A stretch of DNA of 64,000 bases. Origin: Leeia speluncae (GTDB taxonomy: Bacteria > Pseudomonadota > Gammaproteobacteria > Burkholderiales > Leeiaceae). How positions within the stretch are numbered: the stretch's first letter is position 1; each line of letters starts with the position of its first letter. The notes under the pieces are model-generated. The model ran no database searches and was not told the DNA's origin. It worked only from the letters and a program-made list of their open reading frames with translations. Location of the stretch: NCBI RefSeq assembly GCF_020564625.1, contig NZ_JAJBZT010000002.1:387141-451140 (forward strand), in the 5' to 3' direction. A program made the position numbers and the translations under genes. This document shows positions 8,921 through 49,955 of this stretch, piece after piece.

Positions 8921-10323
8921 ACGTGCGCCTCCTGTCCCATTGGCAACCCTGTTTTTTGAGCAAGCTCAACCAGATTGGCTTGACAGTAGAAGCCCTGGCA
9001 ACGCCCCATACAAGCACGCGTCCGGCGTTTTAGCCCCCCTAAATCGCCAGCTGGGAATACCCCACTCAGTGCATTTTCTACTTCCCGTTGGGTGACTAGC
9101 TCGCAATGGCAAAGTATCTTCCCACTCTCTGGGGTTTGATAATCTCGTGGGTGATAGTCACTTAACATGGGCATCTGTGGCCACACGGGAAAGTGGGTTG
9201 GTTTGACAGTGAAAAAGTGTTGTTCAACTAAGCCCAGCACATGCTTAGCAATCCCTAATGCAGCAGAGAGCCCGGTTGAGCGAATCCCCGCAACAGAAAT
9301 CCATTGCTCACTAGGCAATGCTTCGATTTGGTAATCCTTAAACTGGCTAGCTGGTCGCAAGCCAGCATAAGTAGCGGTAATCGGTTCATCAGCCAACGCA
9401 GGTAGCATGCGTTCGCCTGCCGTAGCCAACTGCTGAAGCGCGTCAGTGGTTAGTTCAGCATGGGTACGGTTGGTTTGGTCTTCTGCCGTTGGGCCAACCA
9501 GTAAATTACCAAAGACGGTACGGGTAATCACAATGCCCTTGGTACGATCATTCGGGACCGGCAAAAGAATATGCTTGGCTAATGAGGCAGCGGTTTTATC
9601 AAACACCACAAACTGCCCCTTACGCGGGGTGATGTGAAACGGGCTAGGTCGGCAAATCGCTTCAACAATATCCCCCTGATTGCCCGCGCAATTAATCACC
9701 AGTTTGGTTTGAAAAAGCCCTTGGCTAGTATGAAGTTGCCAGCCTTCGGCGATGCGCACACCGCTGATTACCTCGGTATCACGATGCACCTTAGCACCGG
9801 CATGAATGGCTTGAAGCACATAGGCTAATGGAGAAGACCAAGGGTCGATCAGATATTCCCCGGGGACTTTCAGCGCCCCCAGCGCAGCAGATGAAAGCGC
9901 GGGCTCCTCACGCAGCAAGGTGTCCCGGTCGATTTCTACAACATCACGCACCCCATTTTGATGCGCTTTGGCTAATAAGGTAGGTAGCTTGGCTAATTCT
10001 TCTGGCGTCCAAGCCACCAGTAGCGCGCCGGTTTTTAAAACGGGCAGATTCAGTGCTTGGTGAATAGACAGATATTCTTGGTAACCCGACTGCATGCAGG
10101 CTAGCTCTAGGCTATTGGCTGGGGCATCAAACCCAGTATGCAAAATCGCACTATTGGCTTTTGAGGCACCAGATAAAATATCTGCGCCTTTTTCTAATAA
10201 CGCAGCAGAAATACCCGCCCCCGCCAATGCCCTTAGCATGGCGCATCCCACCACGCCGCCACCAATCACGATAGCGTCATAGCGATATATAGGATGATTG
10301 CCCGGTTGATCTACTGCTTGCAT
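8917..10323 (-). CDS. FAD-dependent oxidoreductase with C-terminal BFD-like [2Fe-2S]-binding domain (GlpA-like)
   Basis: DAIVIGGGVVGCA dinucleotide motif plus C-terminal CHCE...CMGRCQGFYC cysteines. Confidence 0.7.
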   Translation of the reverse strand: MQAVDQPGNHPIYRYDAIVIGGGVVGCAMLRALAGAGISAALLEKGADILSGASKANSAILHTGFDAPANSLELACMQSGYQEYLSIHQALNLPVLKTGALLVAWTPEELAKLPTLLAKAHQNGVRDVVEIDRDTLLREEPALSSAALGALKVPGEYLIDPWSSPLAYVLQAIHAGAKVHRDTEVISGVRIAEGWQLHTSQGLFQTKLVINCAGNQGDIVEAICRPSPFHITPRKGQFVVFDKTAASLAKHILLPVPNDRTKGIVITRTVFGNLLVGPTAEDQTNRTHAELTTDALQQLATAGERMLPALADEPITATYAGLRPASQFKDYQIEALPSEQWISVAGIRSTGLSAALGIAKHVLGLVEQHFFTVKPTHFPVWPQMPMLSDYHPRDYQTPESGKILCHCELVTQREVENALSGVFPAGDLGGLKRRTRACMGRCQGFYCQANLVELAQKTGLPMGQEAHV

Positions 10324-10613
10324 GTCTGCCTATCTCCCTGATAGTACAAGCGATTTTTGATGCAGTTTGCGTAAAAAAATGACAACCCTCAACAATCATC
10401 AGTTGTACTAATGCTGATTCATTAGTCATAACGATATTGATTGCAGATGTTTTGAGAGTTGTTACGATAGTTCGCGAATTCTGATTTTTAGCAAGTGTAG
10501 TAACCATCGGTTTGATTTAACCAGAACGAAATTCGGATACCTGTTATCGGGAAAATCGATAGCGGTATACACCTAGCAACGTAATGCAGTGTTATCGGAG
10601 AGAGAGAACACCC

Positions 10614-11996
10614 ATGCAAGCTCGTGATGTAAAAACCGTAGAAGACGCCATTGCACTCGTAGAAGCCAGAGGACTTAGCCACGTGAAAGTCGGCATGTCT
10701 GATATTGATGGCATCATGCGCGGTAAATACTTGTCGAAAGACAAATTTATTTCGGCACTCACCAGTGGTTTTGGCTTTTGTAACGTCGTGTTAGGTTGGG
10801 ATTTGAATGACCAGCTATACGATAACGTGCAATACACCGGCTGGCACACAGCCTACCCAGATGCGTGGGTGCGAATTTTGCCCGCCACTTGCCGCGATTT
10901 ACCGTTTGAGAAAGTAAACGGGCAAGACATGCTGTTTTTCTTGTGTGAATTTATCGAAGATGCAGCTGCCATCTGTCCACGCAACTTGTTACATCGCGTC
11001 CTGAAACGTGCAGATAACCTAGGCTTTGCCGCAAGTGCAGCGCTGGAATACGAATTCTTTATGTTTAAAGAATCACCAGAATCTGTACGAGAAAAAAATT
11101 ATCACAACCTCACGCCTTGGACACCCGGTTATTTTGGTTATTCGGTACTGCGTAGCACGGTTGAAAACGATTTTTACCACCAATTACTTGGCCTATGCGA
11201 ACAAATGGACATGGGCATTGAAGGCTTACATACCGAAACAGGTCCTGGCGTACTAGAAGCGGCGATCGGGGTAGATAGCGCCGAAGCAGCGGCAGACAAA
11301 GCCTTTTTGTTTAAAACCTTTACCAAAGTACTGGCCCAACGCAATAACCTGATGGCGACCTTTATGGCGAAATGGTCACACGATTACCCAGGCCAAAGTG
11401 GTCATATCCATTTATCGCTAAAAGACAAAGCAACAGGGCAATCGGCATTTTATGACCCAAGCCAAAAGCACAATATGAGTAAAACCCAGCGCCACTTTAT
11501 GGCGGGTGTACAAAAGTATTTGCCAGAATTTATGTCGATGTACGCGCAAACGGTGAATAGTTACTCGCGCTTAGTGCCGGGCTACTGGGCACCGTTAGAT
11601 GCAACTTGGGGGCTAGAAAACCGTACCACCGCACTACGTTTGATTCCGGGATCATCTAAATCACAGCGCATGGAAGTGCGTATTGGCTCTGCTGATGCCA
11701 ACCCGTACGTTGCACTCGCCGCTGCATTAGGCTCAGGGCTAATGGGAATCGAGCAAGAATTAGAACCCGATGAAATGGTGGTTGGCAACGCGTATACCCA
11801 AAGTTTCCCTGCGCATCTCAAGCTACCAAACACCCTATGGGAAGCCGCACAACGATTTAAAGGCAGCGAAGCCGCGCGCATTTTATTTGGCGATGCCTTT
11901 GTAGAACACTTTGCCGCCACCCGCGAATGGGAAGAGCGTGAGTTCCGCCGTCATGTAACGGATTGGGAACTCAAACGCTATTTTGAAATTATTTAG
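10614..11996 (+). CDS. Glutamine-synthetase-family gamma-glutamyl-amine ligase (PuuA/IpuC-like)
   Basis: GS catalytic-domain motifs are present and there is an RBS (GGAGAGAGAGAA) before the Met at 10614. The ORF track gives a longer version from 10584. Confidence 0.75.
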   Translation: MQARDVKTVEDAIALVEARGLSHVKVGMSDIDGIMRGKYLSKDKFISALTSGFGFCNVVLGWDLNDQLYDNVQYTGWHTAYPDAWVRILPATCRDLPFEKVNGQDMLFFLCEFIEDAAAICPRNLLHRVLKRADNLGFAASAALEYEFFMFKESPESVREKNYHNLTPWTPGYFGYSVLRSTVENDFYHQLLGLCEQMDMGIEGLHTETGPGVLEAAIGVDSAEAAADKAFLFKTFTKVLAQRNNLMATFMAKWSHDYPGQSGHIHLSLKDKATGQSAFYDPSQKHNMSKTQRHFMAGVQKYLPEFMSMYAQTVNSYSRLVPGYWAPLDATWGLENRTTALRLIPGSSKSQRMEVRIGSADANPYVALAAALGSGLMGIEQELEPDEMVVGNAYTQSFPAHLKLPNTLWEAAQRFKGSEAARILFGDAFVEHFAATREWEEREFRRHVTDWELKRYFEII

Positions 11997-24291: not shown

Positions 24292-24424
24292 AACCTTTAT
24301 ATTTCATCGTGTTCTCTATGAATAATAGATCTCGTACCGTACAAGTCAAAGGCAGATCGAAGGATTAATGACTTTTTACGAAGGATATTTTAGGTAACGC
24401 CAAAATAAAGCGTTTCACGTGAAA

Positions 24425-24447
24425 CGAGGCAGACACAATCTGCCTCG
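24425..24447 (-). terminator. Hairpin terminator downstream of the virD4-like gene
   Basis: Stem gaggcaga/tctgcctc (5-nt loop), then a T-rich run on the minus strand. Confidence 0.4.
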
Positions 24448-24465
24448 ATAAATGAACAGTACCAA

Positions 24466-26139
24466 TTACAAGGTCAGCAGAGGAATATCTGCTTTAGGAA
24501 TTAAACGCTCTTTAAACACCGGTTCTTGGTAATAACGAATCTTCTCGCACATGACCGGGCTACTTAACGCTTCGCACAAGAAAATCTCTTTATCTTGGCT
24601 CATTGCTTTTAGTTCTTGCGGCAACATTAACGCACGTTTTTCATCCGACTCGGTTTTGCTGACATCACGCCCGCGCGAGACGCTTTCTTTGCGTACACTG
24701 CGGTAACCCAGCATTTCCGAATACTCATTGGCATCTTTTTGCTCTCTTGGCGTGTACAAAATTTGTAAGGCATGGTTTGTCATCAACGTCCGGCTTTGCT
24801 CTTGCCCATATGTCCCATCTAATTGCGAAATAGACTGAATAATTGGCAACAATCGAATGTTATAGCCCGCCATATAGCTCACTGCTTTTGCAATAATGTC
24901 TACTCGCCCAATTGAGGTAAACTCATCCATTAATAGTAAACATTGGTATTTCAACTCTGGGTTGTTCTGCGGTAATTCCTTGGTATTAATGTTAATCAAT
25001 TGCGAGAAAAATAGATTAATAATTAATCTGGCTTCTGCCAATTTATTAGGCTGAATACCAATATAAATCGTCATTTTTCGCTTACGAACATCGGTGAGCA
25101 AAAAATCATCTGCTGCGGTTGCCGCATCGGTAATCGGGTTTAACCAAGGCAATAATGGTTCTTTAAACGTCCCCAAGATACTCGAAAAGGTTTCCTCTGC
25201 TTGCGATAACATCCCTGCAAATGCTGTTTTACAGCGACTACTCACAAACGGCATTTCAGATAACTTGGTGAAGTAGGCGCGTAAATCCGTTCCATCTCCA
25301 CTAGATAAGCGGTATAGCGCACCAATGGAACATACAGGAAGTAACTCGGCAGGCACGCCGTCTTTTCGTTTTTGCTCGCGTCGCTCGAACAAAAAAAGCG
25401 CGAGTGCTAAAAACATATTTTGCGCTTGATTCATCCAAAAACGATCTTTCCCATCTTCTCCAACCGGGTAAAGCATCGCCGCAATACTCATTAGATCGGA
25501 CACCCTAAAATCCGGATCATCAGAGACATAGGTCAGTGGATTCCAACGGTGCGTTTTACGATCTTCTGCAAATGGGTTAAACAGGTAAACCTCTTGGCCA
25601 TACTTTTGGCGAAACCCACTGGTTAGTTCAAAGTTTTCTTGTTTAATATCTAACACCACCATCGACTCTTGATAAGACAATAGGTTAGGAATCACAATCC
25701 CGACCCCCTTACCAGAACGCGTAGGTGCCGCTAATAACGGAAACTGTTGCCCAGAGAAATACAAAAACCGGCCATTTGCCTTGCCAACTACCACGCTAGT
25801 CGGTTGTTGTTCAAAAAACCCTTTTTTGCTCAAGTCCGCCACGCTCGCAAAGCGCGCATCGCCATACAGCGAGTCTCTGTTAGTGAGCAGTTTATAAAGT
25901 AAAAAGCCCAACAAGATGAACGGTACGCCAGCACCAATCGCTAAAGACAGCTTCAATTTCCAAGCAACTGCAGGTACTTCATGGTATCGAGCAAAATACT
26001 GATAAAACGTCGTTGGCCCCAAAATACTTGTCGGCAACTTTGTCATCAATAAAAACAAATATCCACTTAGGTATAGCGCAACAAGCACCGCTACCGGTAC
26101 GGCCGCTAGCGAGATAACTTTTTTCTTTTCCACAAACAT
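24466..26139 (-). CDS. virD4: Type IV secretion coupling protein, VirD4/TraG family
   Basis: Two N-terminal TM helices, Walker A (APTRSGKGVGIVIPNLL) and Walker B (LLLMDEFTSIG), typical of a T4CP. Confidence 0.8.
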   Translation of the reverse strand: MFVEKKKVISLAAVPVAVLVALYLSGYLFLLMTKLPTSILGPTTFYQYFARYHEVPAVAWKLKLSLAIGAGVPFILLGFLLYKLLTNRDSLYGDARFASVADLSKKGFFEQQPTSVVVGKANGRFLYFSGQQFPLLAAPTRSGKGVGIVIPNLLSYQESMVVLDIKQENFELTSGFRQKYGQEVYLFNPFAEDRKTHRWNPLTYVSDDPDFRVSDLMSIAAMLYPVGEDGKDRFWMNQAQNMFLALALFLFERREQKRKDGVPAELLPVCSIGALYRLSSGDGTDLRAYFTKLSEMPFVSSRCKTAFAGMLSQAEETFSSILGTFKEPLLPWLNPITDAATAADDFLLTDVRKRKMTIYIGIQPNKLAEARLIINLFFSQLININTKELPQNNPELKYQCLLLMDEFTSIGRVDIIAKAVSYMAGYNIRLLPIIQSISQLDGTYGQEQSRTLMTNHALQILYTPREQKDANEYSEMLGYRSVRKESVSRGRDVSKTESDEKRALMLPQELKAMSQDKEIFLCEALSSPVMCEKIRYYQEPVFKERLIPKADIPLLTL

Positions 26140-26223
26140 CTCAATTCATTCCTACTCAAACAACAAAACGGCATCTATACGAGCATGCCGTCTCTTTTTT
26201 AGTAGCCATCGTGAAGCGAAGGG

Positions 26224-27975
26224 TTAGACCTCCATGACGCGATGACCCTGTTGCTTTTGTTGGCTCTCTTGAAGCGTCCTTGCTTGCTCACTTTGCTGCA
26301 AGGTAGCCACCTGAGATGCGGCGGGAATTTCTTTAACCTGATGCGGATCAACCCTTGCATCTTTGAATTCATCCCATTGGTGATACAACTGTCCATCTTT
26401 CGCCTGATGGACATAATCTAGCTTACTTGCCTTCATTTCGTTGGCTTGCGTCGCCATGCAAGTCATCACATTCCGTTTCTGATCATCTGTCATGCCATGC
26501 AGATAGTCAGACGTATATTTTGCGACTTGGTCGTATAACCCTTTTAGATAATCAGGCAGACTATACTGACGCTCTGGCAGGAATGGAGACGCAGCAAAAG
26601 CACGGTCATTCGGTGTTTTTTCTGCAGCCGCACGAGGGTCTAGAGACGGTTTAATTTCTACAATTTCTCTAAGCCCAGGTTGACGGAATTCATCTTTCGG
26701 TCGAATAGCGCCAAGGTATTCTTTGTTCCAAGGATCTGCATCCAAGCGTGCTAATGCAGGACCAGTAGACGATTGCGACCCAAAAAACTGTGGGTGCCCA
26801 TTCGCATCTTTTCCTGCATAAATACCAATATGCTGTGATGTCTTTCCTGTTTTAAACATCACCAAGTCGCCGGGTTGAAGATCCTCTTTACTCCCCACAC
26901 GGTCGAAGTGCTTTTCGGCATAAGAGGTCAGGTGCTTCCCTTCAAATAGGGCGTGTGTCGTAAATCCAAACGAACCATCTTTATGAGTTGGAAATTTTTC
27001 TTCGATGTTGTATCCCGCCCCTTTCATCGCGTAATAAACAAGCGCAGAACAATCAACGCCTTTACGCCCGTCACCATCCCGATCTTGGTTATAACGCGTA
27101 CCATCAAATTTATTTCCCTGACCATTTTTCACTAACTCCCCAGCCATATCCTCACGGCCATATTCATGGGTTTTGCTAGAGAAATTACGGGTTGCATAAT
27201 CCAAAATGGAACGTTGATGATGTAAAACAGGGTCAGCAAGCTGACTTGGTTGTTTAGACTGTCCTGCTATCTCTTCTACAGAAGATAGATGTTTATGACC
27301 TAAGAAAATCTCTGCACTATCATGGTATCGCTTATCGAAGCCACTACCTGCTTTATGACCAATTGCATCGAACGCTTGTTTTAATTCTTTTTCTGAATGG
27401 TTTGTTTGGTACTGCTTTACTGCATGCGCTAATTTTTCAGAAGCGGATGGGTTATGCCACACCATAGAAAACATGACAGCTTTTTGAGCATCGCTAAGTG
27501 CTGAAACCTCTACGCCTGCCTTGGCTAGGTTTTTATTTAATTTTGCTTCATATTCAGGTGCAAATTGATCAACCAACGCTTTACTTTGAGCATCTGTTAA
27601 TGTCAGTTGTTTTTGCCATTCCGGAGAAGCAAACACATACGAATGACCTGACTTATCTAATTTTAAAGAGGTTATTTCACCGATTGCTTTACCTCGTGAA
27701 GAAGCTTCAAAATCTTTGAATTTTGGATGAGAACCATCTGGTGTATGTTGTAGGACATGCCCAACTTGCTGCAAATCAGCTTTTAATTTTGGTAAAGGAT
27801 ATCCAATCGCCTCTTCTACCTTTGCCCATCTCTCTTCATTAAAGGCACCGTTTTTTCCATTACATAAATTGATGCCAGCACCAATCGTTGGATACCCTTT
27901 TGTATCTAGATAAACATATCCAACCACATCTTCCATCTGCTTAAGTGCAGCATACCGAGCAGACTCATAACTCAT
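26224..27975 (-). CDS. Two-domain peptidoglycan hydrolase (N-terminal T4-lysozyme/GH24-like, central NlpC/P60 peptidase) with Gln-rich C-terminal tail; candidate T4SS-delivered antibacterial effector
   Basis: E...D...T motif (MEDVVGYVYLDTKGYPTIGAGINL) like T4L residues 11-30. NlpC/P60 Cys (GVDCSALV) and His (TSQHIGIYAG). C-terminal QQSEQARTLQESQQKQQ. Confidence 0.65.
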   Translation of the reverse strand: MSYESARYAALKQMEDVVGYVYLDTKGYPTIGAGINLCNGKNGAFNEERWAKVEEAIGYPLPKLKADLQQVGHVLQHTPDGSHPKFKDFEASSRGKAIGEITSLKLDKSGHSYVFASPEWQKQLTLTDAQSKALVDQFAPEYEAKLNKNLAKAGVEVSALSDAQKAVMFSMVWHNPSASEKLAHAVKQYQTNHSEKELKQAFDAIGHKAGSGFDKRYHDSAEIFLGHKHLSSVEEIAGQSKQPSQLADPVLHHQRSILDYATRNFSSKTHEYGREDMAGELVKNGQGNKFDGTRYNQDRDGDGRKGVDCSALVYYAMKGAGYNIEEKFPTHKDGSFGFTTHALFEGKHLTSYAEKHFDRVGSKEDLQPGDLVMFKTGKTSQHIGIYAGKDANGHPQFFGSQSSTGPALARLDADPWNKEYLGAIRPKDEFRQPGLREIVEIKPSLDPRAAAEKTPNDRAFAASPFLPERQYSLPDYLKGLYDQVAKYTSDYLHGMTDDQKRNVMTCMATQANEMKASKLDYVHQAKDGQLYHQWDEFKDARVDPHQVKEIPAASQVATLQQSEQARTLQESQQKQQGHRVMEV

Positions 27976-28115
27976 TTATTCACCATTCATCACATTGTCA
28001 TAAAACGCGAATAATACCATTAGCATTTAAATATGCAATATACATATGAAGATTTTATACGTAAAAAAACCCGCTAGTGCGGGTTTATCTCGGTGGTTCT
28101 GTTTACACAATCTGA

Positions 28116-29210
28116 CTAGAGAAATCGTAATCCCTCTATCCAAACTTGTTCGATTGCTAGCGATCTATTCATCACGACAAGATCAGAAAATGCCCCGAGC
28201 ACCAATTGCCCTCTATCCGCCATACCCAAATACTCTGCAGGGTTTTTAGACAGTCGTTTCGAGGCTTCCGCGAGTGGCAAACCAATACTGACCAAGTTAC
28301 GCAGCGCTTGATCCATTGTTAGCGTACTTCCTGCTAGCGTGCCATCGGCTAACCGCACTGCACCTAAGCACTTATGCACCGTTTGACGCCCTAATTGGTA
28401 ATCGCCATCTGGCATACCGGTGGCGGCCGTTGCATCAGTCACGGCATACAGCTGAGGAATCGCTCTTAAGGCAGATAAAATCGCGCCGGGGTGTACATGA
28501 ATTAAATCAGGGATAATTTCTGCAAATTGCGCATGTGCTAAGGCTGCACCTACTTGGCCCGGTGCACGATGATGCAACGCAGTCATCGCATTAAACAAAT
28601 GAGTAAAGCCCGAAGCTCCTTCATTAAGCGCAGCCAACGCCTCTTCATAAGATGCATTGCTATGGCCTAACTGAACACGAATCCCTTTATCTGCCAACTG
28701 CCTGATTAAGGCTAAATGCCCAGTCAACTCTGGGGCCATGGTCAGTACTTTAATCGCGGCAATTGCATCATAATTCGCCACATCGGCAAGGGTGGCACTA
28801 CTCGCGTAATCTGGTTGCGCACCAAGTTTGGCAGGGCTAATAAATGGCCCTTCCAAGTGCACACCTAATACTTTTGCACCACCACCAGATACGGGCATTT
28901 GTTCCGCAATACCGCTTAACGCTCGCTCAATATCACTGGCAGGCGCCGTCATCGTCGTCGCTAATAGGGACGTCGTACCATAACGTGCATGGGTAGTGGT
29001 GATGGTCTGAATCGCATCCCCGCCCTCCATCACATCCCGGCCTCCACCCCCATGTACATGCAGGTCGATGAAGCCAGGCAGGATATACGGTAAGGCATTG
29101 GTTGTGGGATCCGTTGGCGTTGCGTCTATCGATAGTATTCGGCTAGCAATTTCGATTTGCCCAACCACCCAACCAGCCGGCGTAAGAATATTTCCCTGTA
29201 GAAAACTCAT
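28116..29210 (-). CDS. nagA: N-acetylglucosamine-6-phosphate deacetylase
   Basis: NagA motifs DLHVHGGGG and metal-binding His/Glu pattern; about 360 aa. Confidence 0.85.
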   Translation of the reverse strand: MSFLQGNILTPAGWVVGQIEIASRILSIDATPTDPTTNALPYILPGFIDLHVHGGGGRDVMEGGDAIQTITTTHARYGTTSLLATTMTAPASDIERALSGIAEQMPVSGGGAKVLGVHLEGPFISPAKLGAQPDYASSATLADVANYDAIAAIKVLTMAPELTGHLALIRQLADKGIRVQLGHSNASYEEALAALNEGASGFTHLFNAMTALHHRAPGQVGAALAHAQFAEIIPDLIHVHPGAILSALRAIPQLYAVTDATAATGMPDGDYQLGRQTVHKCLGAVRLADGTLAGSTLTMDQALRNLVSIGLPLAEASKRLSKNPAEYLGMADRGQLVLGAFSDLVVMNRSLAIEQVWIEGLRFL

Positions 29211-32804: not shown

Positions 32805-33015
32805 CATAGTGGAGCGGGAATCGAACCCGCGACAAACGATTGATAAGATCGTTGCTCTACCAGTTGAGCTTTCCATGTGTGGATAAGTAGGAATCGAACC
32901 TACATTTCACCTACCTAGGTATCCCGACTTTGCCAAGCAATGGTTCACGGCACAGCAAGCTCACGACCTTTTACAAAGGGAACTAACTGCCAGCGCGGGA
33001 TACAGACCCGCCACC
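32805..33015 (-). ncRNA. Tandem tRNA-like elements (two T-arm GGTTCGATTCC units plus a D-arm GCTCAACTGGTAGAGC) in the sigma-54-transcribed leader of the SPFH-rtcB operon; candidate Y-RNA-like tRNA mimics, not canonical tRNAs
   Basis: The minus strand reads ...GCTCAACTGGTAGAGC-AACGATCTTATCAATCGTT-TGTC-GCGGGTTCGATTCCCGC-TCCAC... and ...GTAGGTTCGATTCCTAC... The acceptor stems pair poorly, the anticodon-like loop CTTATCA is unusual, and no CCA is encoded. Confidence 0.45.
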
Positions 33016-35963: not shown

Positions 35964-36746
35964 TTAACGAGAAAAAGGAATTCGCTGATACCCCATTCGC
36001 TTCACAGCAAGTACTGGTAAGCGAATCATAAACTCAACCATTAAACGGAAGTGCATCCACGTTAATAATTTATTGTCTCGCCAGTAATTAAAGTGCGATA
36101 CCCCGCCCTCAGAAGCTTCAAAATATTTGACTGGCGCAGGGAAATTAATTGGCGGTACGCCATACCAGCAGAGCCTCACTACCGCTTCTGGGTCAAAATC
36201 AAACCGGCGCATCCACTTTTGGCGATGCATAATGTCTCGCAGGGCTGCCACTGGATAAATTCGGAAGCCAAATAAGGAATCCCCAACACCCATCCCCATG
36301 GTTTCTAAATTGGCCCACCAATTAGACACTTTCCGACCATTTACCCGTAAAGCGGGCGCGCTCGCATCAAATACAGGTTTGCCTAGCACCATGGCTTCTG
36401 GATGGGTTTGCGATGCCTGCATAAAAGCAGGAATCAGATCCGCCGGATGTTGGCCATCGGCATCCATACAGAGTGCATGAGTAAAACCTTGTTTGGCTGC
36501 TTCATCTAATCCAAACAATACTGCAGAACCTTTGCCGGCATTCTGGGGCAGTTCTAAAATGGTTAAGCCATCATCGTTTTTGGCCAGCTCGCGTAACCAT
36601 TCAGTACTGCCATCGGTACTACCATCCACGACAACCCATACCGGCGACCATACCTCGCGTGCGGCGCGAATCGTCTCCAAAATTTTCTTACCAGGGTTGT
36701 AACTAGGGATCAGCACCAAATGGGTTGCAGATGGCAAAGACGACAT
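35964..36746 (-). CDS. Family-2 glycosyltransferase (DPM1-like)
   Basis: GT2 motifs LIPSYNP...VVVDGSTDGS...DAD. Confidence 0.8.
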   Translation of the reverse strand: MSSLPSATHLVLIPSYNPGKKILETIRAAREVWSPVWVVVDGSTDGSTEWLRELAKNDDGLTILELPQNAGKGSAVLFGLDEAAKQGFTHALCMDADGQHPADLIPAFMQASQTHPEAMVLGKPVFDASAPALRVNGRKVSNWWANLETMGMGVGDSLFGFRIYPVAALRDIMHRQKWMRRFDFDPEAVVRLCWYGVPPINFPAPVKYFEASEGGVSHFNYWRDNKLLTWMHFRLMVEFMIRLPVLAVKRMGYQRIPFSR

Positions 36747-36760
36747 AATGCGCTTTCTTT

Positions 36761-37519
36761 TTATTTAGAACGAAGTTGGCGATCTAGCGTATACCGCAAA
36801 TCGATAAATTGTTGGTCTTGGTACAAATCTTGTAGCCGCTTTGTCGTTTCTGCCACCACACCACTGGCTTCAATTTCCTCACCAAGTTTCACTTGGTAAC
36901 ACACGGGAAATTGCGGTGGTTTCCAAATCGGCCAAGACTTGGTCAGGTAAGGTGAATTGGTATAAATAAACACTGGCAATAAATTCACTTTGGCTTTTTT
37001 GGCGATTAACGCCGCCGTACCATGAAAGGTATTCACCGGGGTTTCCGTCGTCCGCGTCCCTTCTGGAAACAGAAGTAAATGATCACCTGCTTTTACCTTG
37101 GCAATCGCCTCTCTAAGCATCCGCTCGGTATAGCGATTCGACACATAGCCCGCTAGTTTGGCACCTGCACCTAAGAAAAGGTTCGTTTCTAATCTGCCTT
37201 TCATGATACAGATCATCCGATTCACTCTGGACAACACTAAAAACGCATCAATCATTGCAGGGTGGTTGGGCACCACCACTAACCCTTTCCGGCGATTGAT
37301 TTCATCTAGCGCGGACAAATCGCAATACAACAAACCAAAGAACCGACAACCAGCAAAAAATATCCGGCAAATGCGGCTAATCGCAAACTGTACTAATCGG
37401 GCATGAAACGAATTAGGGAAAGGTAGTAAAGGCAATACAAGTGCATTTCCTATTAACAACATGCTCCCAAGCCAGAACAGCATCAGATAAAAGAGAACAA
37501 TTTGTAAAAGTCGGCGCAC
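36761..37519 (-). CDS. Lysophospholipid/1-acyl-glycerol-3-phosphate acyltransferase (PlsC-like)
   Basis: HX4D-type motif (PNHPAMIDAF) and FPEGTRT motif, with N-terminal TM helices. Confidence 0.75.
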   Translation of the reverse strand: MRRLLQIVLFYLMLFWLGSMLLIGNALVLPLLPFPNSFHARLVQFAISRICRIFFAGCRFFGLLYCDLSALDEINRRKGLVVVPNHPAMIDAFLVLSRVNRMICIMKGRLETNLFLGAGAKLAGYVSNRYTERMLREAIAKVKAGDHLLLFPEGTRTTETPVNTFHGTAALIAKKAKVNLLPVFIYTNSPYLTKSWPIWKPPQFPVCYQVKLGEEIEASGVVAETTKRLQDLYQDQQFIDLRYTLDRQLRSK

Positions 37520-37673
37520 GGTGTAAGAATTTTCGTTGGGGGTAAAGTTGTCTTTGCCGTGTAACCCAGATCTGCTATTAATCAGAAACTAATTTGAGCA
37601 AAAACAACAAGATGAAGCCCGCCGCGTAGCAGCGTGTTATGCCATTTTACTATATAATGCACCCCTCTCCAAA

Positions 37674-37955
37674 ATGTTAAATTCAGCACAGAACATGTTA
37701 AATTCTTTGGTTAAAAACTATCTGATCAACATCAAACAAAAAGATGCGGCCTTATTCGATAAGCCTGATTTGCAGATTGCAGACTTAGCGTTAGATTCAT
37801 TAGACATGGTCGAAATGCTGTTTGAAATTGAAGACAAATGTGGGTTCCAATTAGATGACCCAATGCGTTATTTGAAGATGTCTTACCAAGGCATGTTAGA
37901 CGACATCGAGAAACAAATTCGCGCCAATAATAATGGCGAAATGATTTCCCTTTAA
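37674..37955 (+). CDS. Acyl carrier protein
   Basis: Phosphopantetheine attachment motif LDSLDMVEM. Confidence 0.8.
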   Translation: MLNSAQNMLNSLVKNYLINIKQKDAALFDKPDLQIADLALDSLDMVEMLFEIEDKCGFQLDDPMRYLKMSYQGMLDDIEKQIRANNNGEMISL

Positions 37956-37975
37956 TTCGTTAAGGCTGGCTCAAC

Positions 37976-39220
37976 GTGGCGAAAGTACTGATCACCGGCA
38001 TCGGAGCCATCACCCCCATTGGTAATGATGCAAATTCCACCTTTGCATCTGCCATTGCAGGAAAAAGCGGCATCAAACAGCCGGATGGCAAAATGCATGA
38101 GTGGCTACCGAATTTAGTGGTAGCGCCATCCGAAAACCCACAGTCTTTACTTCCCCCCGCGTTTGCAGGGCTAGACCGCGCCGCCCAATTTGGCCTGGTT
38201 GCCGCGTTAGAAGCCATGCAACAAGCCAACATAGAAACCCCAACCGCAGATGCTCGTCGGTTTGGGGTATTTGTTGGGATTGGCTTTGGCGGTGCGCAAA
38301 CGGTGGATGGCGTATACGATAGACTGATTGCCGCCGCGAGCGCCAGCAAACCCTTGCCTGTCCTACATCCACTCTCTGTCCCCCGCATGATGGCCAATGC
38401 GCCAGCCGCAGCGTTATCGATGCACTTTGGTCTTAAAGGGCCCAGCAATACCTACTCGGTTGCCTGTGCCTCTTCGGCAATTGCGCTTGGTGAAGCCTTC
38501 CGAGCCATCAAACACGGTTATCTAGATGCTGCGATTGTGGTGGGCGCAGAAGCCATGCTGACCCCGGGTGCCATGCTTGCTTGGAACGCACTACGTGTGA
38601 TGGCGAAGCCAGACGCAACAGACCCTGCCACCAGTTGCAAACCTTTTTCAGCCAATCGCTGTGGGTTTGTGATGGGGGAAGGTGCCGGTGCGATCGTCTT
38701 AGAAGCGGAGCATCGCGCAATCACGAGAGGTGCTAACGTGATTGCGGAGGTCGCTGGTTATGGCTATAGCAGTGATGCGGCCCACCTCACCGCGCCTTCT
38801 TCCGAAGAACAAATTGTCGCGATGGAAATGGCACTTGCTGAGGCAGGTCTTCACGCATCGGACATTCAGTACTTGAATGCGCATGGCACCGCGACCCAAG
38901 CTGGCGACATTACCGAAACGGATTCGATCAAAGCCACCTTTGGCGCGCACACTGCCAATCTGCCGGTTAGTTCGACCAAAGCGCTACATGGTCACTTAAT
39001 TGGAGCAAGTGGTATTGTCGAGTTTCTAATTAGTGTGATGGCGATGAACCAAGGCATCTTGCCCCCAACGGCTCACCTCTCCGAGCCTGATGCAGCCTGT
39101 GATCTCGACTTTATTCCCAACACAGCAAGGAATACCGGGGCATTATCGGCAGTCATGTCGAACTCGTTTGCGTTTGGCGGAAGTAATGCGTCCCTGATTG
39201 CACGGAAATACTCCGCATGA
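37976..39220 (+). CDS. Beta-ketoacyl-ACP synthase (KAS I/II-like)
   Basis: Active-site C (YSVACASS) and HGTAT / HLIGASG His motifs. Confidence 0.85.
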   Translation: MAKVLITGIGAITPIGNDANSTFASAIAGKSGIKQPDGKMHEWLPNLVVAPSENPQSLLPPAFAGLDRAAQFGLVAALEAMQQANIETPTADARRFGVFVGIGFGGAQTVDGVYDRLIAAASASKPLPVLHPLSVPRMMANAPAAALSMHFGLKGPSNTYSVACASSAIALGEAFRAIKHGYLDAAIVVGAEAMLTPGAMLAWNALRVMAKPDATDPATSCKPFSANRCGFVMGEGAGAIVLEAEHRAITRGANVIAEVAGYGYSSDAAHLTAPSSEEQIVAMEMALAEAGLHASDIQYLNAHGTATQAGDITETDSIKATFGAHTANLPVSSTKALHGHLIGASGIVEFLISVMAMNQGILPPTAHLSEPDAACDLDFIPNTARNTGALSAVMSNSFAFGGSNASLIARKYSA

Positions 39221-39702
39221 GTGAAAACAACGACTTGCAGTATCCATTCTCACTGAATGCAGAAGCGATTCGCGAGTTGTTGCCTCATCGTGGTTGTATT
39301 GTGGCGTATGATAGTTTGACCATTGAAGGGCCGCATACCTTTGTTGGAAAAGCCAGATGGGATCGTCAGAATCCAATTATTGAAGGCCACTTCCCAACGC
39401 TTCCGATTGTGCCGGGTGTCATGCTCATTGAAGCACTCGCCCAGCTTGCTGGCGCAGGTTTATTGGCGGGCGACCCTTATGTACGAAGCCTACCTAAAGA
39501 CCAATTAGGGATGTTGGCCGGTACACGAAACTGCTGGTTTAAAGCACCTGTCAGGCCAGAAGAGGAAGTCGTCTTTCATATTCAATGTAGGCAGTTTGCC
39601 GAACGAATCACACTCGCAGCAGCAACAGTCAAAGTGGGCGACGTAGAAGTCGCAAAGCTAGAGATTTCGATAGCATATGCGGAAACCCCTGCGCTCGCAT
39701 AA
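39217..39702 (+). CDS. FabA/FabZ-like hot-dog 3-hydroxyacyl-ACP dehydratase
   Basis: HFP...PGVMLIEALAQ motif. The start overlaps the KAS stop. Confidence 0.75.
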   Translation: MSENNDLQYPFSLNAEAIRELLPHRGCIVAYDSLTIEGPHTFVGKARWDRQNPIIEGHFPTLPIVPGVMLIEALAQLAGAGLLAGDPYVRSLPKDQLGMLAGTRNCWFKAPVRPEEEVVFHIQCRQFAERITLAAATVKVGDVEVAKLEISIAYAETPALA

Positions 39703-39764
39703 ACCAAAACACCACTCCCCAATGCCGACATTTGCGTGGGCATGGGGCAGCAGAAGGTTGATGA

Positions 39765-40490
39765 TTAAATCATCCCACCATTCACAGAAATCACCTGACC
39801 AGTAATATAAGCGGCTTCTTCAGAAGCCAGAAAACCGACCAAACTAGCCACTTCTTCTGGGCGGCCGGCTCGCTGTACCGGCACCATTTGTTTGATCATG
39901 TCTTTATCAAACACATCTTTCGTCATGTCCGATTCAATAATCCCCGGTGCAACGGCATTCACCGTAATGCCTCGGCTAGCCACTTCCATTGCTAGCGATT
40001 TGGTCGCACCATGTAGCCCCGCTTTAGCTGCCGCGTAGTTGGTCTGACCACGGTTCCCCGCAATCGCCGCCACAGAAGAAATATTGATAATGCGACCCCA
40101 ACGGGTGCGAATCATCGGCATCATTAAGGGTTGGGTCACATGGAAAAAGCCATTGAGTGAGACATTAATCACCTTGTGCCATTGCTCGCTAGATAAACCG
40201 GGGAACACCGCATCGTCATGAATACCCGCATTATTCACGACAACCTGAATCGGGCCATTTTCTAGCAAAGCCTCTAGTGCGGTGCGTGTAGCGGCTTCAT
40301 TGGCAATATCAAACTGGATAACGTCTGCTGCACCACCCGCGGCGGTAATGTCAGCGGCTAATGCATCCGCCCGGTCTCGCTGGCGATTCGCATGAATCAC
40401 CACGTGAAACCCCATACTGGCTAACTTTTGGCAAACCGCCGCGCCAATTGCCCCACTACCACCCGTGACTAACGCTTTTTTCAATTCCAA
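39765..40490 (-). CDS. fabG: 3-oxoacyl-ACP reductase (SDR family, FabG-like)
   Basis: TGGSGAIG cofactor motif with a YxxxK catalytic pair (YAAAK). Confidence 0.85.
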   Translation of the reverse strand: MELKKALVTGGSGAIGAAVCQKLASMGFHVVIHANRQRDRADALAADITAAGGAADVIQFDIANEAATRTALEALLENGPIQVVVNNAGIHDDAVFPGLSSEQWHKVINVSLNGFFHVTQPLMMPMIRTRWGRIINISSVAAIAGNRGQTNYAAAKAGLHGATKSLAMEVASRGITVNAVAPGIIESDMTKDVFDKDMIKQMVPVQRAGRPEEVASLVGFLASEEAAYITGQVISVNGGMI

Positions 40491-40496
40491 ACCCTT

Positions 40497-40958
40497 TTAC
40501 ATCGCTAACGAGCGAATATCCAAGACCGCACTTAGGCGGCCTTCCGCCAATAACACTTCATTTGCATGGGCGGTAAATTCATACATCACCATCGATTGAT
40601 CGCCCGATAAGCGGGTCGCACGAATTTGCATCGACACGCCTAGCGTATCTAGTCGGTCGCAATACCATTTCACTTGCCGAATACTGGTGAGATACCCCGC
40701 CGCCGGTGCAGACGCTCCCGCCGCCAGCAATCCACCATGTACGGCCATCGCTTGCGCTGCATATTCAATAATCGCCGATACACCCAACCGGCCTTCCGCT
40801 GTTAACGGATGATCACTCGTTAAATGCGAGGTTGCCGAACAGACAATCTCATCTGCACTCCACGCTTCCACCTTATCCAGCAAACACATAGTGCCTTTAT
40901 GAGGAATCCGTTGCTGAATCTCTTCATGGCTTAGCTGCGTTGGGAGGCTCATAGGCAA
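40497..40958 (-). CDS. Hot-dog fold dehydratase/thioesterase-like protein
   Basis: 153-aa hot-dog protein within the fatty-acid-like cluster. Confidence 0.55.
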   Translation of the reverse strand: MPMSLPTQLSHEEIQQRIPHKGTMCLLDKVEAWSADEIVCSATSHLTSDHPLTAEGRLGVSAIIEYAAQAMAVHGGLLAAGASAPAAGYLTSIRQVKWYCDRLDTLGVSMQIRATRLSGDQSMVMYEFTAHANEVLLAEGRLSAVLDIRSLAM

Positions 40959-41740
40959 GTCACCTCAATGGCTAATTGCGATGGCGCTAGATAATCCACC
41001 ACTACTCGCCCAGCAGTCTGATTTGCTAATAAAGCTAACATCGGTAAAGCTCGCGCTGCCGGCACCATTAGGCGTAACGCTTCTAACGCCGCATCTTCCA
41101 TCTGGGCGCTCGCCTCATCGGTTAATGCAAAACGCACAGATGCTAAAGATTGGGCGGTTTGTACCGGACTAAATACCATTCCCACCCCAAACGGATAAGG
41201 AATCGGACGAATCGCATTTAATGGGTCTGGATAGGCAGAATCAAACGCAATTAAGAGGACTGGTTTGTCTAAAGACACCACCAAAGGCAATGCTTCTAAT
41301 AGCCCCGCCCCGAAGGTCGCATCATACGCACACAAGCTTGTCGACGTTTCCATGCTCTTAGCCCCAATCGACCAATAGCCAGCGGCGGCATTGTGCACCG
41401 AATTATGAAAGCGGGTCGGTGAAATCGAGCGATCATCTGACGCTAGGGTTTCTAAAATTTGGTGACAATTTTCACAATCGCCACCAGTAGAAACAAACAC
41501 CGATGGCAACGCGGCTAGCGCGATACCTGCTTTTTCTGCCGCTTCGACGCCTAGCGCCATGGATAAGCGAGTTGCCGTGCCGGTTCGACGACGTTCTGTT
41601 GGCGGCAGCAAGGCAGCAGGCGGTAAGGCAACATCGGCTAACACAAGAGGCGTTTCCCCGCGTAACACGCTAGTCGCCGTTTCCCAGTTAGGTAAACCAG
41701 GGCCAATCACGCTAACACTTTCTAAAAACACTTGGCGCAT
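40949..41740 (-). CDS. Ketosynthase-like chain-length-factor-type protein (KS fold without canonical active-site Cys context)
   Basis: N-terminal KS-like sequence (VSVIGPGLPNW), truncated relative to a KAS. It is paired with the KAS encoded immediately downstream (41745..42935). Confidence 0.55.
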   Translation of the reverse strand: MRQVFLESVSVIGPGLPNWETATSVLRGETPLVLADVALPPAALLPPTERRRTGTATRLSMALGVEAAEKAGIALAALPSVFVSTGGDCENCHQILETLASDDRSISPTRFHNSVHNAAAGYWSIGAKSMETSTSLCAYDATFGAGLLEALPLVVSLDKPVLLIAFDSAYPDPLNAIRPIPYPFGVGMVFSPVQTAQSLASVRFALTDEASAQMEDAALEALRLMVPAARALPMLALLANQTAGRVVVDYLAPSQLAIEVTCL

Positions 41741-41744
41741 CGGT

Positions 41745-42935
41745 TTATCCCTTAGAGAAAATCAAACTACAGTTACTACCACCAAAACCAAATGAATTGG
41801 TCAGTACATGCTGGATATTCGCTACCTGATTATCGAGCAAATAATGGCAAGCAATGTCTGGATCTAATTCCGTTGTGCCAACGCCAGCCGGTAGAAAACC
41901 CTCGGTAAGCGCAATCGCACTAAAAATGGCCTCTAAGCCACCGGCCGCACCCAGAGTGTGTCCGGTATGGCCTTTGGTCGAACTACACGGTGTATTCTTG
42001 CCAAACAACGCCGTCACAGCTTTACCTTCGGCAGCATCATTACTTGGGGTGGCCGTACCATGTAGGTTAATGTAGCCAATCTCTGCAGGCGTTAAGCCTG
42101 CCATGCTGAGTGCCGCACGCATTGCCTGCTGAGCGCCTAATCCTTCCGGGTGCGGGGACGACATATGATGCGCGTCGCTAGTTTCCCCATAGCCAGTTAG
42201 ATAAATCCCCTGTTTCACGTCCGCCCGCTCAGGTTGCTCTAATAAGGCAAACGCTGCGCCTTCCCCAATGGAAATGCCATTTCTGGCAACGTCATAGGGT
42301 TTACACGGGGCGACTGATACCAATTGCAGCGATGAAAAACCATAAATCGTCGTTAGACACAAACTATCCACGCCACCCACAATGGCGGCATCTGCTAATC
42401 CACATTCAATGAGTCGTTCAGCGGCGGCAAATACTTTTGCACTAGAAGAGCACGCGGTAGAGACAACGTTCGCAATCCCGGTTAGGCCAAAATAGGTACG
42501 CACAAAATCAGCCAAGGAGTAGGTATTTTGTGTTTGGCGATAACGATGCCCAACGGGTAACGCCCCTGTTTCCGGATCTCGCTCACGATAAGCTACTTCG
42601 GTGCTTAAAATTCCGGAAGTACTCGTACCGAGTAAGACCGCAACACGGTTGGGGCCGTATTTGGTAATCGCGTGAAGCACCGCCGTTTCAAAGCCATCTT
42701 GCTGTAAGGCTAAGTAAGCCAATTGATTATTGCGGCAATCAAAATGCTTCACGGCGTCTGGTAGCACCACCTCATCAACACCCGCTACTTCACCTGTGCA
42801 GAACTCGAAAGAAACGGTTTCCCATGATTTCTTCACAATGCCACTTTGCTTGGCTTTTAACGCGGCGATCTGTTCAGCTAAACCGACCCCCAGTGCAGAA
42901 GTTGCGGTATAAGAAGACATCAACAAAGGTTTCAT
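41745..42935 (-). CDS. Beta-ketoacyl-ACP synthase
   Basis: KS motifs VSTACSSS and HGTATPSND, GHTLGAAG. Confidence 0.85.
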   Translation of the reverse strand: MKPLLMSSYTATSALGVGLAEQIAALKAKQSGIVKKSWETVSFEFCTGEVAGVDEVVLPDAVKHFDCRNNQLAYLALQQDGFETAVLHAITKYGPNRVAVLLGTSTSGILSTEVAYRERDPETGALPVGHRYRQTQNTYSLADFVRTYFGLTGIANVVSTACSSSAKVFAAAERLIECGLADAAIVGGVDSLCLTTIYGFSSLQLVSVAPCKPYDVARNGISIGEGAAFALLEQPERADVKQGIYLTGYGETSDAHHMSSPHPEGLGAQQAMRAALSMAGLTPAEIGYINLHGTATPSNDAAEGKAVTALFGKNTPCSSTKGHTGHTLGAAGGLEAIFSAIALTEGFLPAGVGTTELDPDIACHYLLDNQVANIQHVLTNSFGFGGSNCSLIFSKG

Positions 42936-42963
42936 GGTGTCAGCACTCAGTTAAAACTTGGAT

Positions 42964-43788
42964 TTAGGAAGACAGTTGTTCATCTGCCTTAGCGGCGATT
43001 TCAAACGCCTCTGCTAAGGTGCAAAAGGTAAACCCTTTCGCATGAACCGATTCAATCAGGGATGGTAACACGCTCAAGATCACCGGCGAGCCATTCGCAT
43101 CATTTGCTGCATGGCCATCGTGCATAAGCAGGATTTCGCCAGAGACCAAATCACGGGTTAATTTATCTAGTACCACGGTAGGATTTTTTTCACGGGTATC
43201 ATACGCACGGCGCGACCAAGTAACTTGTTTCACCGATAAACGTTGTAGCACCGGGTCTAAAAAAGGGTTTCTTAAACCAGCCATTGGGCGATAAAGCGTC
43301 GGTCGAATCGCGGTCTGACGAAAAATTGCGTCTGCGCCTTGCTGAATTTCAGCCTTCCAACCTGCGAGCCCCGAGCACGGATTACTCACCCGATGCGCGT
43401 AGCCATGATTTTCTACTTGATGTCCTTCCGATTGAATTTGCCGCACCACTTCCGGATACTGCTCTACTCGCCGGCCAATACAAAAGAACGTCACTTTTAC
43501 TTGGTACTTTGCCAAAATCTGCAAAATCTGCGGCGTTAGCCTAGGATCTGGCCCATCGTCTAAGGTTAGACAAATTCGGCCGGGCAATTCCTCTGGCTCA
43601 AATTGAGTCAGGTTGTCGCCTAGTGCCTGAGACCTTGGCAACATGCCTAACAAGCCCACCAATACATGCAGCACCAGCAAAAAGAGAAGCACCACTAACC
43701 AATTTTCTGGCTGAAGCAATAGCCAAGTAATCGCTAGCACATGCAGACCAGCTACCATCACGATAAATTTACTTGGCTGCCATTTCAT
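42964..43788 (-). CDS. Polysaccharide deacetylase (NodB/CE4-like) with N-terminal TM
   Basis: CE4 motifs LTLDDGP and HGYAHR. The likely start is the Met at 43788, overlapping the upstream stop; the ORF track extends to 43866. Confidence 0.65.
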   Translation of the reverse strand: MKWQPSKFIVMVAGLHVLAITWLLLQPENWLVVLLFLLVLHVLVGLLGMLPRSQALGDNLTQFEPEELPGRICLTLDDGPDPRLTPQILQILAKYQVKVTFFCIGRRVEQYPEVVRQIQSEGHQVENHGYAHRVSNPCSGLAGWKAEIQQGADAIFRQTAIRPTLYRPMAGLRNPFLDPVLQRLSVKQVTWSRRAYDTREKNPTVVLDKLTRDLVSGEILLMHDGHAANDANGSPVILSVLPSLIESVHAKGFTFCTLAEAFEIAAKADEQLSS

Positions 43789-49900: not shown

Positions 49901-49955
49901 CGTGATATCAATGAGAAAAGGTTAAGGTTGCTTCGCTCGCCCACCAAACACCGGG

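Follow-up and report, generated by a model that had tools for sequence, protein, structure and literature searches.

We analysed a 64-kb stretch of the Leeia speluncae genome (the window, to which all negative results given for it below are limited). On its reverse strand it carries a gene for a 583-aa candidate effector with peptidoglycan hydrolase domains, followed by virD4, the gene for a type IV coupling protein of 557 aa (Table 1). Both open reading frames (ORFs) lie exactly where an earlier note on this DNA had placed them. That note took the pair for an orphan VirD4 encoded together with a bacteria-killing effector of a type IV secretion system (T4SS), with no immunity gene beside it. 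Going by consensus scans, the two genes read as a bicistronic unit bracketed by terminator-like sites, and the hairpins past the virD4 stop probably mark its end. The question throughout is whether this unit belongs to a Xanthomonadales-like bacteria-killing T4SS (X-T4SS), whose effectors end in a VirD4-recognition domain, the XVIPCD.

Table 1. Features of the effector-virD4 unit and its borders (window coordinates).
Feature	Position	Strand	Basis or detail
Effector gene, 583 aa, candidate X-Tfe-like double peptidoglycan hydrolase	26224..27975	(-)	domains, homologues
Probable T4-lysozyme (GH24)-like N-terminal domain, residues 1-253, exchangeable cassette	27217..27975	(-)	residue spacing, model, strain swap
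NlpC/P60 (C40) peptidase, residues 301-425	26701..27075	(-)	Cys309 ('GVDCSAL'), His382 ('SQHIGIY')
Folded part of XVIPCD-like domain, residues ~475-542	26350..26553	(-)	predicted alpha-alpha-beta-beta-beta
C-terminal tail, residues 543-583	26227..26349	(-)	Gln-rich 'ATLQQSEQARTLQESQQKQQ'; hydrophobic, positively charged end 'GHRVMEV'
Spacer effector-virD4	26140..26223	(-)	84 bp; no terminator-like site found
virD4, X-T4SS-clade type IV coupling protein, 557 aa	24466..26139	(-)	Pfam, homologue scan
Two hairpins past virD4 stop	24411..24461	(-)	one is CGAGGCAGA-TTGTG-TCTGCCTCG
Second of these hairpins, terminator-like	24426-24411	(-)	followed by TTTATTTT
Terminator-like hairpin after amidohydrolase stop	28086-28067	(-)	AAACCCGC-ACTA-GCGGGTTT, then T run; consensus scan
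Sigma-70-like promoter match between hairpin and effector gene	28065-28037	(-)	consensus scan
Putative transcription-unit boundary	28037..28086	(-)	hairpin and promoter match; consensus scans, no evidence of function

The candidate effector and its N-terminal cassette

The effector is identical (100%) to the NCBI entry 'C40 family peptidase [Leeia sp. TBRC 13508 / Leeia speluncae]' (P0001), and neither a signal peptide nor a lipobox was found in its 583 residues. The three-part build described in the earlier note was borne out, with a clear NlpC/P60 domain, a probable lysozyme fold in front of it and a glutamine-rich tail. The NlpC/P60 domain belongs to its Pfam family by a wide score (PF00877, E=4e-14; 52.8 bits against a cut-off of 23). 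Cys309 and His382 aligned with the catalytic residues of MepS/Spr. The usual third residue (His131 of Spr) aligned with Gly399 in 'GSQ', a motif conserved across the effector subfamily.

Homologues of the NlpC/P60 core at 36-44% identity are XVIPCD effectors. All 24 of the other database homologues carry NlpC/P60, and 19 of the 24 also carry the Pfam XVIPCD, PF20410 (taken from a precomputed Pfam column, spot-checked). The closest are four metagenomic proteins (P0003-P0006; loci L083-L085), 38-39% identical from the NlpC/P60 core into the C-terminus. They form one subfamily with the Leeia effector, share the motif 'GSQ(S/T)STGP' with it and, unlike it, have no N-terminal lysozyme domain.

The N-terminal domain is probably T4-lysozyme-like, as residue spacing and a structural model suggest. 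Glu15, Asp24 and Thr30 reproduce exactly the T4-lysozyme spacing E-x8-D-x5-T. The Pfam match to PF00959 (Phage_lysozyme; residues 12-38) stayed below its cut-off (E=0.035; 14.9 bits against 22.3). With the first 260 aa, one endolysin family in PHROGs was hit at a near-chance level (E=0.038), and PDB sequences gave chance matches only (affibody, enolase, E>0.1). A single-sequence AlphaFold2 model reached a predicted template modelling score (pTM) of 0.64. When this model was compared with PDB by Foldseek, nearly all of the top 50 matches were T4 lysozyme, pesticin and phage endolysins, with probabilities mostly of 0.75-1.0 and E of 0.07-0.5.

The N-terminal toxin domain is an exchangeable cassette. 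A Logan assembly of a sister strain (SRR32608997; L001) is 98.6-98.8% identical over 12 kb of the locus, except that window positions 27217-27981 are replaced there (9990-10738) by 749 non-homologous bases. The in-frame replacement begins shortly before the start codon, ends at codon 253 and gives the sister allele (P0002) an SLT transglycosylase domain (SLT_4, E=1e-5) in place of the lysozyme-like one. GC content is 0.392 in the lysozyme cassette against 0.461 in the rest of the gene. Both alleles are intact in these near-identical strains and neither has an immunity gene at the locus. Swapping of toxin domains between alleles is typical of polymorphic toxins.

A C-terminal domain compared with XVIPCDs

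The C-terminus of the effector is supported, from model and profile evidence, as a divergent XVIPCD that is conserved at the level of fold and lies below the Pfam sequence threshold. An AlphaFold2 model of residues 440-583, built on a multiple sequence alignment (MSA) of five sequences, had a predicted local distance difference test score (pLDDT) of 80-86 in the core. It folds as helix-helix-strand-strand-strand with a helical tail, the topology solved by Oka et al. for the XVIPCD of XAC2609 (PMC8740702). The top three Foldseek matches in PDB were chains A and B of 7r6s (TfcB) and 7mu9 (XVIPCD). The entry 7r6s is named seven times in the paper on the structure of Stenotrophomonas maltophilia TfcB, in which the C-terminal domain is reported to be an XVIPCD (PMC11253643). 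The tail also has the features described for XVIPCDs (PMC8740702): it is glutamine-rich (26% of the last 38 residues, against 6.9% of the whole effector) and ends in GHRVMEV.

Profile-profile comparison gave a consistent picture. The Leeia-type domain (P0001 together with P0027 of Leeia oryzae) was aligned with 48 XVIPCDs by hhalign and scored 21.9 (E=0.005). Column shuffles scored 10.7 +/- 1.9 with a maximum of 16.0, and none of the 200 reached the real value. The alignment was in the expected register, with 'LPDY..LYDQV' against 'HPdh..aLYqqa' and 'KLDYV' against 'rIDhV'. It keeps the Pro-Asp of 'LPDY', the Asp of 'KLDYV', the Gln of beta2 and the Pro of 'EIPAAS'. With intermediate sequences included, the probability was 97% (E=3e-11). 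A phmmer comparison of the Leeia C-terminus with P0004, a relative with a weak XVIPCD, gave 13.8 bits in the same register. P0004-P0006 themselves scored 10-24 bits on a hidden Markov model (HMM) of XVIPCDs, P0005 falling just short at 24.4 against a cut-off of 24.9. The profile search of the C-terminus that the earlier note had proposed had a divided outcome: the profile-profile match stood above all shuffles, and single profiles, as set out in the next section, found nothing significant. A Hac8_like_N match on the C-terminal 159 aa (E<=10) was rejected as spurious.

An exhaustive HMMER search with the C-terminal 158 aa against 1.84 billion representative proteins returned the sister allele, P0027 of L. 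oryzae and one spurious repeat protein. The family of Leeia-type C-terminal domains is thus tiny and could not be enlarged. P0027 (WP_156802203; 440 aa) carries the domain at 36% identity on an unrelated N-terminus with no Pfam match. At this locus (L082 9285-11323; Logan SRR892333) the gene just upstream encodes P0031, a protein of 207 aa with a signal peptide and a candidate for immunity, and by gene order this is the typical layout of a putative immunity-effector pair. Two Mrr-type restriction endonuclease genes follow in the same L. oryzae locus. Since the domain accompanies an X-type VirD4 in both Leeia species, on different cargo, it behaves as expected of a secretion signal.

The Pfam XVIPCD model appears to miss this divergent, fold-conserved branch, and effector inventories based on PF20410 are therefore probably incomplete. 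In Neisseriaceae bacterium PsAf, a 410-aa protein encoded directly upstream of virD4 (L024 479-1711) has no Pfam match and a Gln-rich tail, '...QNLMEQEIEIQRNQEQQILHERSRNLV', preceded by a segment that, judged by eye, looks helical. This C-terminus may be a further case of a divergent XVIPCD that PF20410 misses.

The fold of the C-terminus also bears on whether the hydrolase is a weapon at all. It might instead be a VirB1-like or housekeeping remodeller of peptidoglycan by which the producer opens its own wall while assembling a T4SS or some other envelope machine. Lytic transglycosylases (VirB1) are common in T4SS loci, the sister-strain allele carries an SLT domain and no immunity gene is adjacent. 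Yet the C-terminal domain has the predicted fold of a VirD4-recognition signal, the homologous effectors carry XVIPCDs and come with secreted proteins that are candidates for immunity, and the toxin-domain swap between alleles is of the polymorphic-toxin kind. Lacking a Sec signal peptide and a lipobox, moreover, the effector has no usual route into the producer's periplasm. We consider a remodeller improbable.

VirD4 and the search for virB

The 557-aa protein, identical to WP_227179071.1 of Leeia speluncae, has the coupling protein hallmarks that the earlier note had seen in it. It matched PF02534 (T4SS-DNA_transf, E=6e-108), PF12696 (TraG-D_C, 6e-25) and PF10412 (TrwB_AAD_bind, 7e-23). Two hydrophobic helices at the N-terminus supply the membrane anchor, the VirD4-type Walker A is 'APTRSGKGVG' and the Walker B 'LLLMDE' at residue 401; a presumed all-alpha domain completes the features of a type IV coupling protein.

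Relatives of VirD4 were sought in one genome per GTDB species (185,579 species genomes). The best was that of L. oryzae (78% identity). Next, at 57-64%, came the VirD4 proteins of Arenimonas, Dyella, Luteibacter, Stenotrophomonas, Xanthomonas, Pseudoxanthomonas, Hydrogenophaga, Formosimonas and a Neisseriaceae bacterium, and Burkholderia/Paraburkholderia-type VirD4s reached only 46-54%. The taxa at 57-64% are the set that carries Xanthomonadales-like bacteria-killing T4SSs, Neisseriales included (Sgro et al. 2019, PMC6536674). By these sequence relationships Leeia VirD4 belongs to the X-T4SS clade. Its presumed all-alpha domain (residues ~232-345) is 50-60% identical to those of the clade, whose lineages share 52-67% among themselves. 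We had considered that this domain might be unusually divergent, possibly through co-evolution with the divergent signal, and rejected the idea because 50-60% lies within the X-clade spread.

Between the two Leeia species virD4 shows pN=0.165 against a saturated pS of 0.889, indicating strong purifying selection. L. oryzae has it at the corresponding, syntenic position, flanked by the genes for the BadF-type kinase and the nitroreductase (L002 8789-12280). The effector, amidohydrolase, hybrid kinase and GGDEF genes of L. speluncae are absent there; thus about 11 kb of genes were gained or lost at the virD4 site between the two species.

The gene content of the window was taken from Pfam scans of 38 of its larger ORFs. 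VirD4 was the sole T4SS component among them, with no relaxase and no integrase, and no plasmid, phage or integrative and conjugative element (ICE) genes were found around the locus. By tblastn, X-type VirB8-11 proteins had no match in the 64 kb, and virB7, whose product in X-T4SSs has a C-terminal N0 domain, was not found in the window. ARAGORN called no tRNA gene; Rfam gave one tRNA-model match, a tRNA-like element. On both sides the unit is flanked by core genes of metabolism and regulation that are in synteny with L. oryzae and the sister strain, and the locus is chromosomal, as described for X-T4SSs (Sgro et al. 2019, PMC6536674).

These results bear directly on the possibility that VirD4 is the coupling protein of a conjugative element (an ICE or plasmid remnant) and the hydrolase its transfer-associated lysin. 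The NCBI name, 'type IV secretory system conjugative DNA transfer family protein', points that way, and the Pfam families are common to TraG and TraD. Against this, the window has no relaxase, integrase, virB or tRNA gene as an integration site. Its only tRNA-model match lies ~4.8 kb upstream inside the syntenic Rtc block, the core flanks are syntenic between two Leeia species and the nearest VirD4 relatives are all of chromosomal X-T4SS types. A conjugative origin is therefore very improbable. A prophage or ICE context was rejected, no supporting genes being present in the window. The earlier note would have given up its proposal for a C-terminus with no likeness to XVIPCDs inside an ICE or prophage; we found syntenic core flanks and a profile-profile match in register.

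The lack of virB in the window is best judged against other loci. About 40 X-clade virD4 loci were compared with flanks of up to 10 kb fetched on each side; about half have virB8-11 in these flanks and half do not. At 12 of the virB8-11-less loci (L003-L006, L010, L013, L014, L016, L018, L021, L041, L079) between one and five XVIPCD genes in the same orientation come immediately before virD4, with gaps of ~85-890 bp (Pfam-confirmed for L004). The Leeia unit has the same layout, with a gap of 84 bp. One of the 12, L016, is on NZ_QICJ01000003.1 of Dyella sp. AtDHG13, a contig listed with an X-T4SS of all twelve subunits (Sgro et al. 2019, PMC6536674). A great distance between an effector-virD4 unit and virB thus does not speak against a complete system. 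Since distant units of this kind are common in X-T4SS genomes, 'orphan' describes the locus, not necessarily the genome. The orphan VirD4 of the earlier note accordingly holds for the window, as a layout common in genomes with an X-T4SS. Across L003-L041 and L079 we also observed a dichotomy: loci with virB8-11 within 10 kb had no XVIPCD gene detected in the fetched sequence, and loci with no nearby virB had XVIPCD genes upstream. The recurrent layout of XVIPCD genes leading into virD4 away from virB could be used to find new effectors and signal variants.

On indirect evidence, a virB set elsewhere in the Leeia genome is probable, given the purifying selection on virD4, the intact alleles, the second effector and candidate immunity gene of L. 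oryzae and the frequency of unlinked virD4 among complete systems. A search with Formosimonas VirB11 in a set of 5.8 billion proteins was uninformative either way: the best 120 of 7010 matches were all at least 81% identical and none was from Leeia. No relevant literature was found on Leeia together with T4SSs.

Taken together, we read the pair as an effector-virD4 operon of an X-T4SS in the betaproteobacterium Leeia speluncae, at a probability of about 0.72. The X-T4SS effector architecture proposed in the earlier note finds support in the XVIPCD-carrying homologues, the fold, the hhalign score above 200 of 200 shuffles and the VirD4 clade. The effector, which has no signal peptide, would be made in the cytoplasm. 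Its alpha-alpha-beta-beta-beta domain and Gln-rich tail would serve as a divergent XVIPCD, as the fold-level model suggests, and by analogy with Xanthomonas citri may dock on the all-alpha domain of a co-expressed VirD4 hexamer. VirD4 would hand the effector over to a VirB channel whose genes lie elsewhere in the genome, for delivery to the periplasm of a neighbouring Gram-negative cell. There, going by the domain families, the T4-lysozyme-like domain would cut glycan strands and the NlpC/P60 domain peptide stems, leading to lysis of the target. The producer may be protected by cytoplasmic retention, a Tpf-type generic block of fratricide and/or an immunity gene elsewhere. The bacteria-killing X-T4SS family would thereby extend to the genus Leeia.

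Several results weigh against this reading. PF20410 did not match the effector, tested as its isolated C-terminal 159 aa, even at E<=10, and our own XVIPCD HMM gave the Leeia C-terminus 0.2-1.8 bits, which is not significant alone. The hhalign probability was 7.5% when intermediate sequences were left out, and the MSA behind the C-terminal model holds the weak XVIPCD members P0004-P0006, a possible bias. The conserved XVIPCD residues are the HPD motif, Asp363 of 'IDHV', Phe375/Val377, Asp383-Pro384, Pro400 and Ser404; in the hhalign register His315 is replaced by Leu, Phe375/Val377 by Leu or Tyr and His, and Pro384 is absent. Of these, Phe375 and Val377 are the residues most important for VirD4 binding in XAC2609 (PMC8740702). 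The N-terminal model is of low confidence (pLDDT 62). Finally, virB genes were found neither in the 64-kb window nor within 10 kb of virD4 in L. oryzae.

This last point is also the chief argument that the pair is genuinely orphan, Leeia having kept an X-type VirD4 and proteins with a recognition domain but no VirB channel, either as a decaying relic or for another conduit or role. In the window virB genes are absent from the 24 kb to one side of the pair and from the 36 kb to the other. L. oryzae either lost the adjacent effector or never had it, and the XVIPCD-like domain has diverged to an unusual degree, with only three relatives in 1.84 billion representative proteins. A genuine orphan, however, fits poorly with strong purifying selection on virD4 (where synonymous sites are saturated), with intact ORFs and catalytic motifs and with a cassette that is actively exchanged among near-identical strains. 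A nearby virB is also missing from about half of the virD4 loci of the X-clade (fetched flanks of up to 10 kb on each side), including that of the Dyella strain with a full set. A coupling protein by itself, moreover, cannot carry a protein across two envelopes. It is unlikely that Leeia truly has no VirB and uses an X-type coupling protein, with divergent-signal substrates and no cognate immunity, through another conduit or in a non-secretory role.

Immunity, known systems and neighbouring features

No small ORF within or beside the unit resembles a secreted protein or lipoprotein. An immunity gene hidden in overlapping small ORFs was rejected, since none of these has a signal peptide or a homologue. 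The relatives P0003 and P0006, whose loci were fetched, lie between VirB6/TrbL genes and are preceded by two signal-peptide proteins (L083 415-1568, L085 454-1482); both loci are flanked by TrbL/VirB6 paralogues. One of the secreted proteins is Cys-rich, DUF4189-like by sequence motifs read by eye, has a 'ASKQASKQASKQ' repeat and may be Tpf-like. The other, a candidate for immunity, is conserved and 155-164 aa long. A tblastn search of the 64 kb gave no homologue of either (E>0.5). With no plausible small ORF and no tblastn homologue in the window, the absence of an immunity gene is real for the Leeia locus, as the earlier note had observed of small lipoproteins on either side.

That note had found the absence puzzling. 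It is less so because X. citri X-Tfi immunity proteins are not needed against attack by sister cells and mainly guard against cis-intoxication (PMC10933484), and because Tpf, a DUF4189 protein, blocks fratricide generically (bioRxiv 10.64898/2026.05.09.723464). In a milder version of the proposal that Leeia does without VirB and cognate immunity, the system may be complete and its effector may need no cognate immunity, self-protection being independent of the toxin. Such independence would agree with toxin domains being exchanged freely among strains with no linked immunity gene. As neither allele has an immunity gene, the swap offers a clean natural case for testing the recent claim that immunity proteins of X-T4SSs act against cis-intoxication and not against kin fire.

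The Leeia unit is of a known kind. What is supported as noteworthy is an XVIPCD conserved in fold and divergent in sequence, the clean swap of toxin domains and the lack of a linked immunity gene. Its chromosomal VirD4 is of the same clade as that of the X. citri X-T4SS (VirD4 XAC2623; X-Tfe(XAC2609)/X-Tfi(XAC2610); PMC6536674, PMC8740702, PMC10933484). X. citri X-Tfe effectors share with the Leeia effector one or more N-terminal peptidoglycan hydrolase domains, a C-terminal alpha-alpha-beta-beta-beta domain, the lack of a signal peptide and a Gln-rich tail with a hydrophobic, positively charged end. In contrast to X. citri, the Leeia domain is too divergent for PF20410 and does not conserve Phe375/Val377, no X-Tfi is adjacent and the effector has no peptidoglycan-binding domains. 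The Leeia virD4 adjoins the effector gene, not virB7, and virB genes were not found in the window.

TfcB of S. maltophilia (7R6S; PMC11253643) is 16% identical over the aligned part. It has a GH19-like domain and no NlpC/P60, whereas the Leeia effector is probably GH24-like, and it was identified partly through its adjacent immunity gene, which the Leeia unit lacks. Units of Arenimonas, Dyella, Luteibacter and Frateuria have, as in Leeia, at least one XVIPCD gene directly upstream of virD4 and no virB8-11 in the fetched flanks. Unlike in Leeia, their effectors score 54-107 bits on an XVIPCD HMM built from other effector C-termini. At L004, the only one of these loci studied in detail, the two effector genes are separated by an ORF of 270 aa that matches no Pfam family and may encode immunity; in Leeia a single effector gene is followed by virD4 with no gene in between.

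Pesticin was among the top fold matches of the N-terminal domain. Pesticin, a T4-lysozyme-like bacteriocin, and the Tae amidases of type VI secretion systems (T6SS), members of the NlpC/P60 superfamily, kill Gram-negative rivals from the periplasm by muramidase activity and by cleavage of peptide stems, respectively. Their delivery differs (FyuA/TonB import and the T6SS) and they have no XVIPCD, so that the likeness is one of function only.

Upstream of the unit the flank is of a housekeeping kind, with genes for an amidohydrolase, a BadF-type kinase, RtcB, Band7 and RtcR, followed by an aryl-polyene-like lipid cluster. Downstream lie genes for a 1770-aa CHASE-PAS hybrid histidine kinase, a response regulator with GGDEF, a nitroreductase, a LysR regulator and metabolic enzymes. 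An imperfect 21-nt direct repeat (18/21) brackets the effector-virD4 unit exactly. One copy (24433-24453) lies 13 nt past the virD4 stop, where it forms part of a hairpin of 9 bp, and the other (28105-28125) overlaps the amidohydrolase stop codon. The repeat may be the trace of an insertion or a chance match, with a rough expectation of ~0.1 per region.

The tRNA-like element (32810-32875(-)) scored 46.3 bits on the Rfam tRNA model over model positions 4-67, with a truncated acceptor stem and no ARAGORN call. A weak match to YrlA (Y RNA-like) at 32827-32929 overlaps it (23.9 bits, under the gathering score of 69). Both sit between the divergent RtcR gene and the Band7-RtcB genes, and the element as a whole (32810-32929(-)) may be a Y-RNA-like or tRNA-like RNA of an Rtc repair operon. 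The large lipid/aryl-polyene-like cluster (window ~36000-50000) encodes ketoacyl synthases, FabA-like and SDR proteins, acyltransferases, an MMPL/RND-like exporter, a LolA-like protein and an AMP-ligase. Further along, an 838-aa protein (54170-56686(-)) combines WG-containing beta repeats with Sel1 repeats, and GC skew is strongly negative there.

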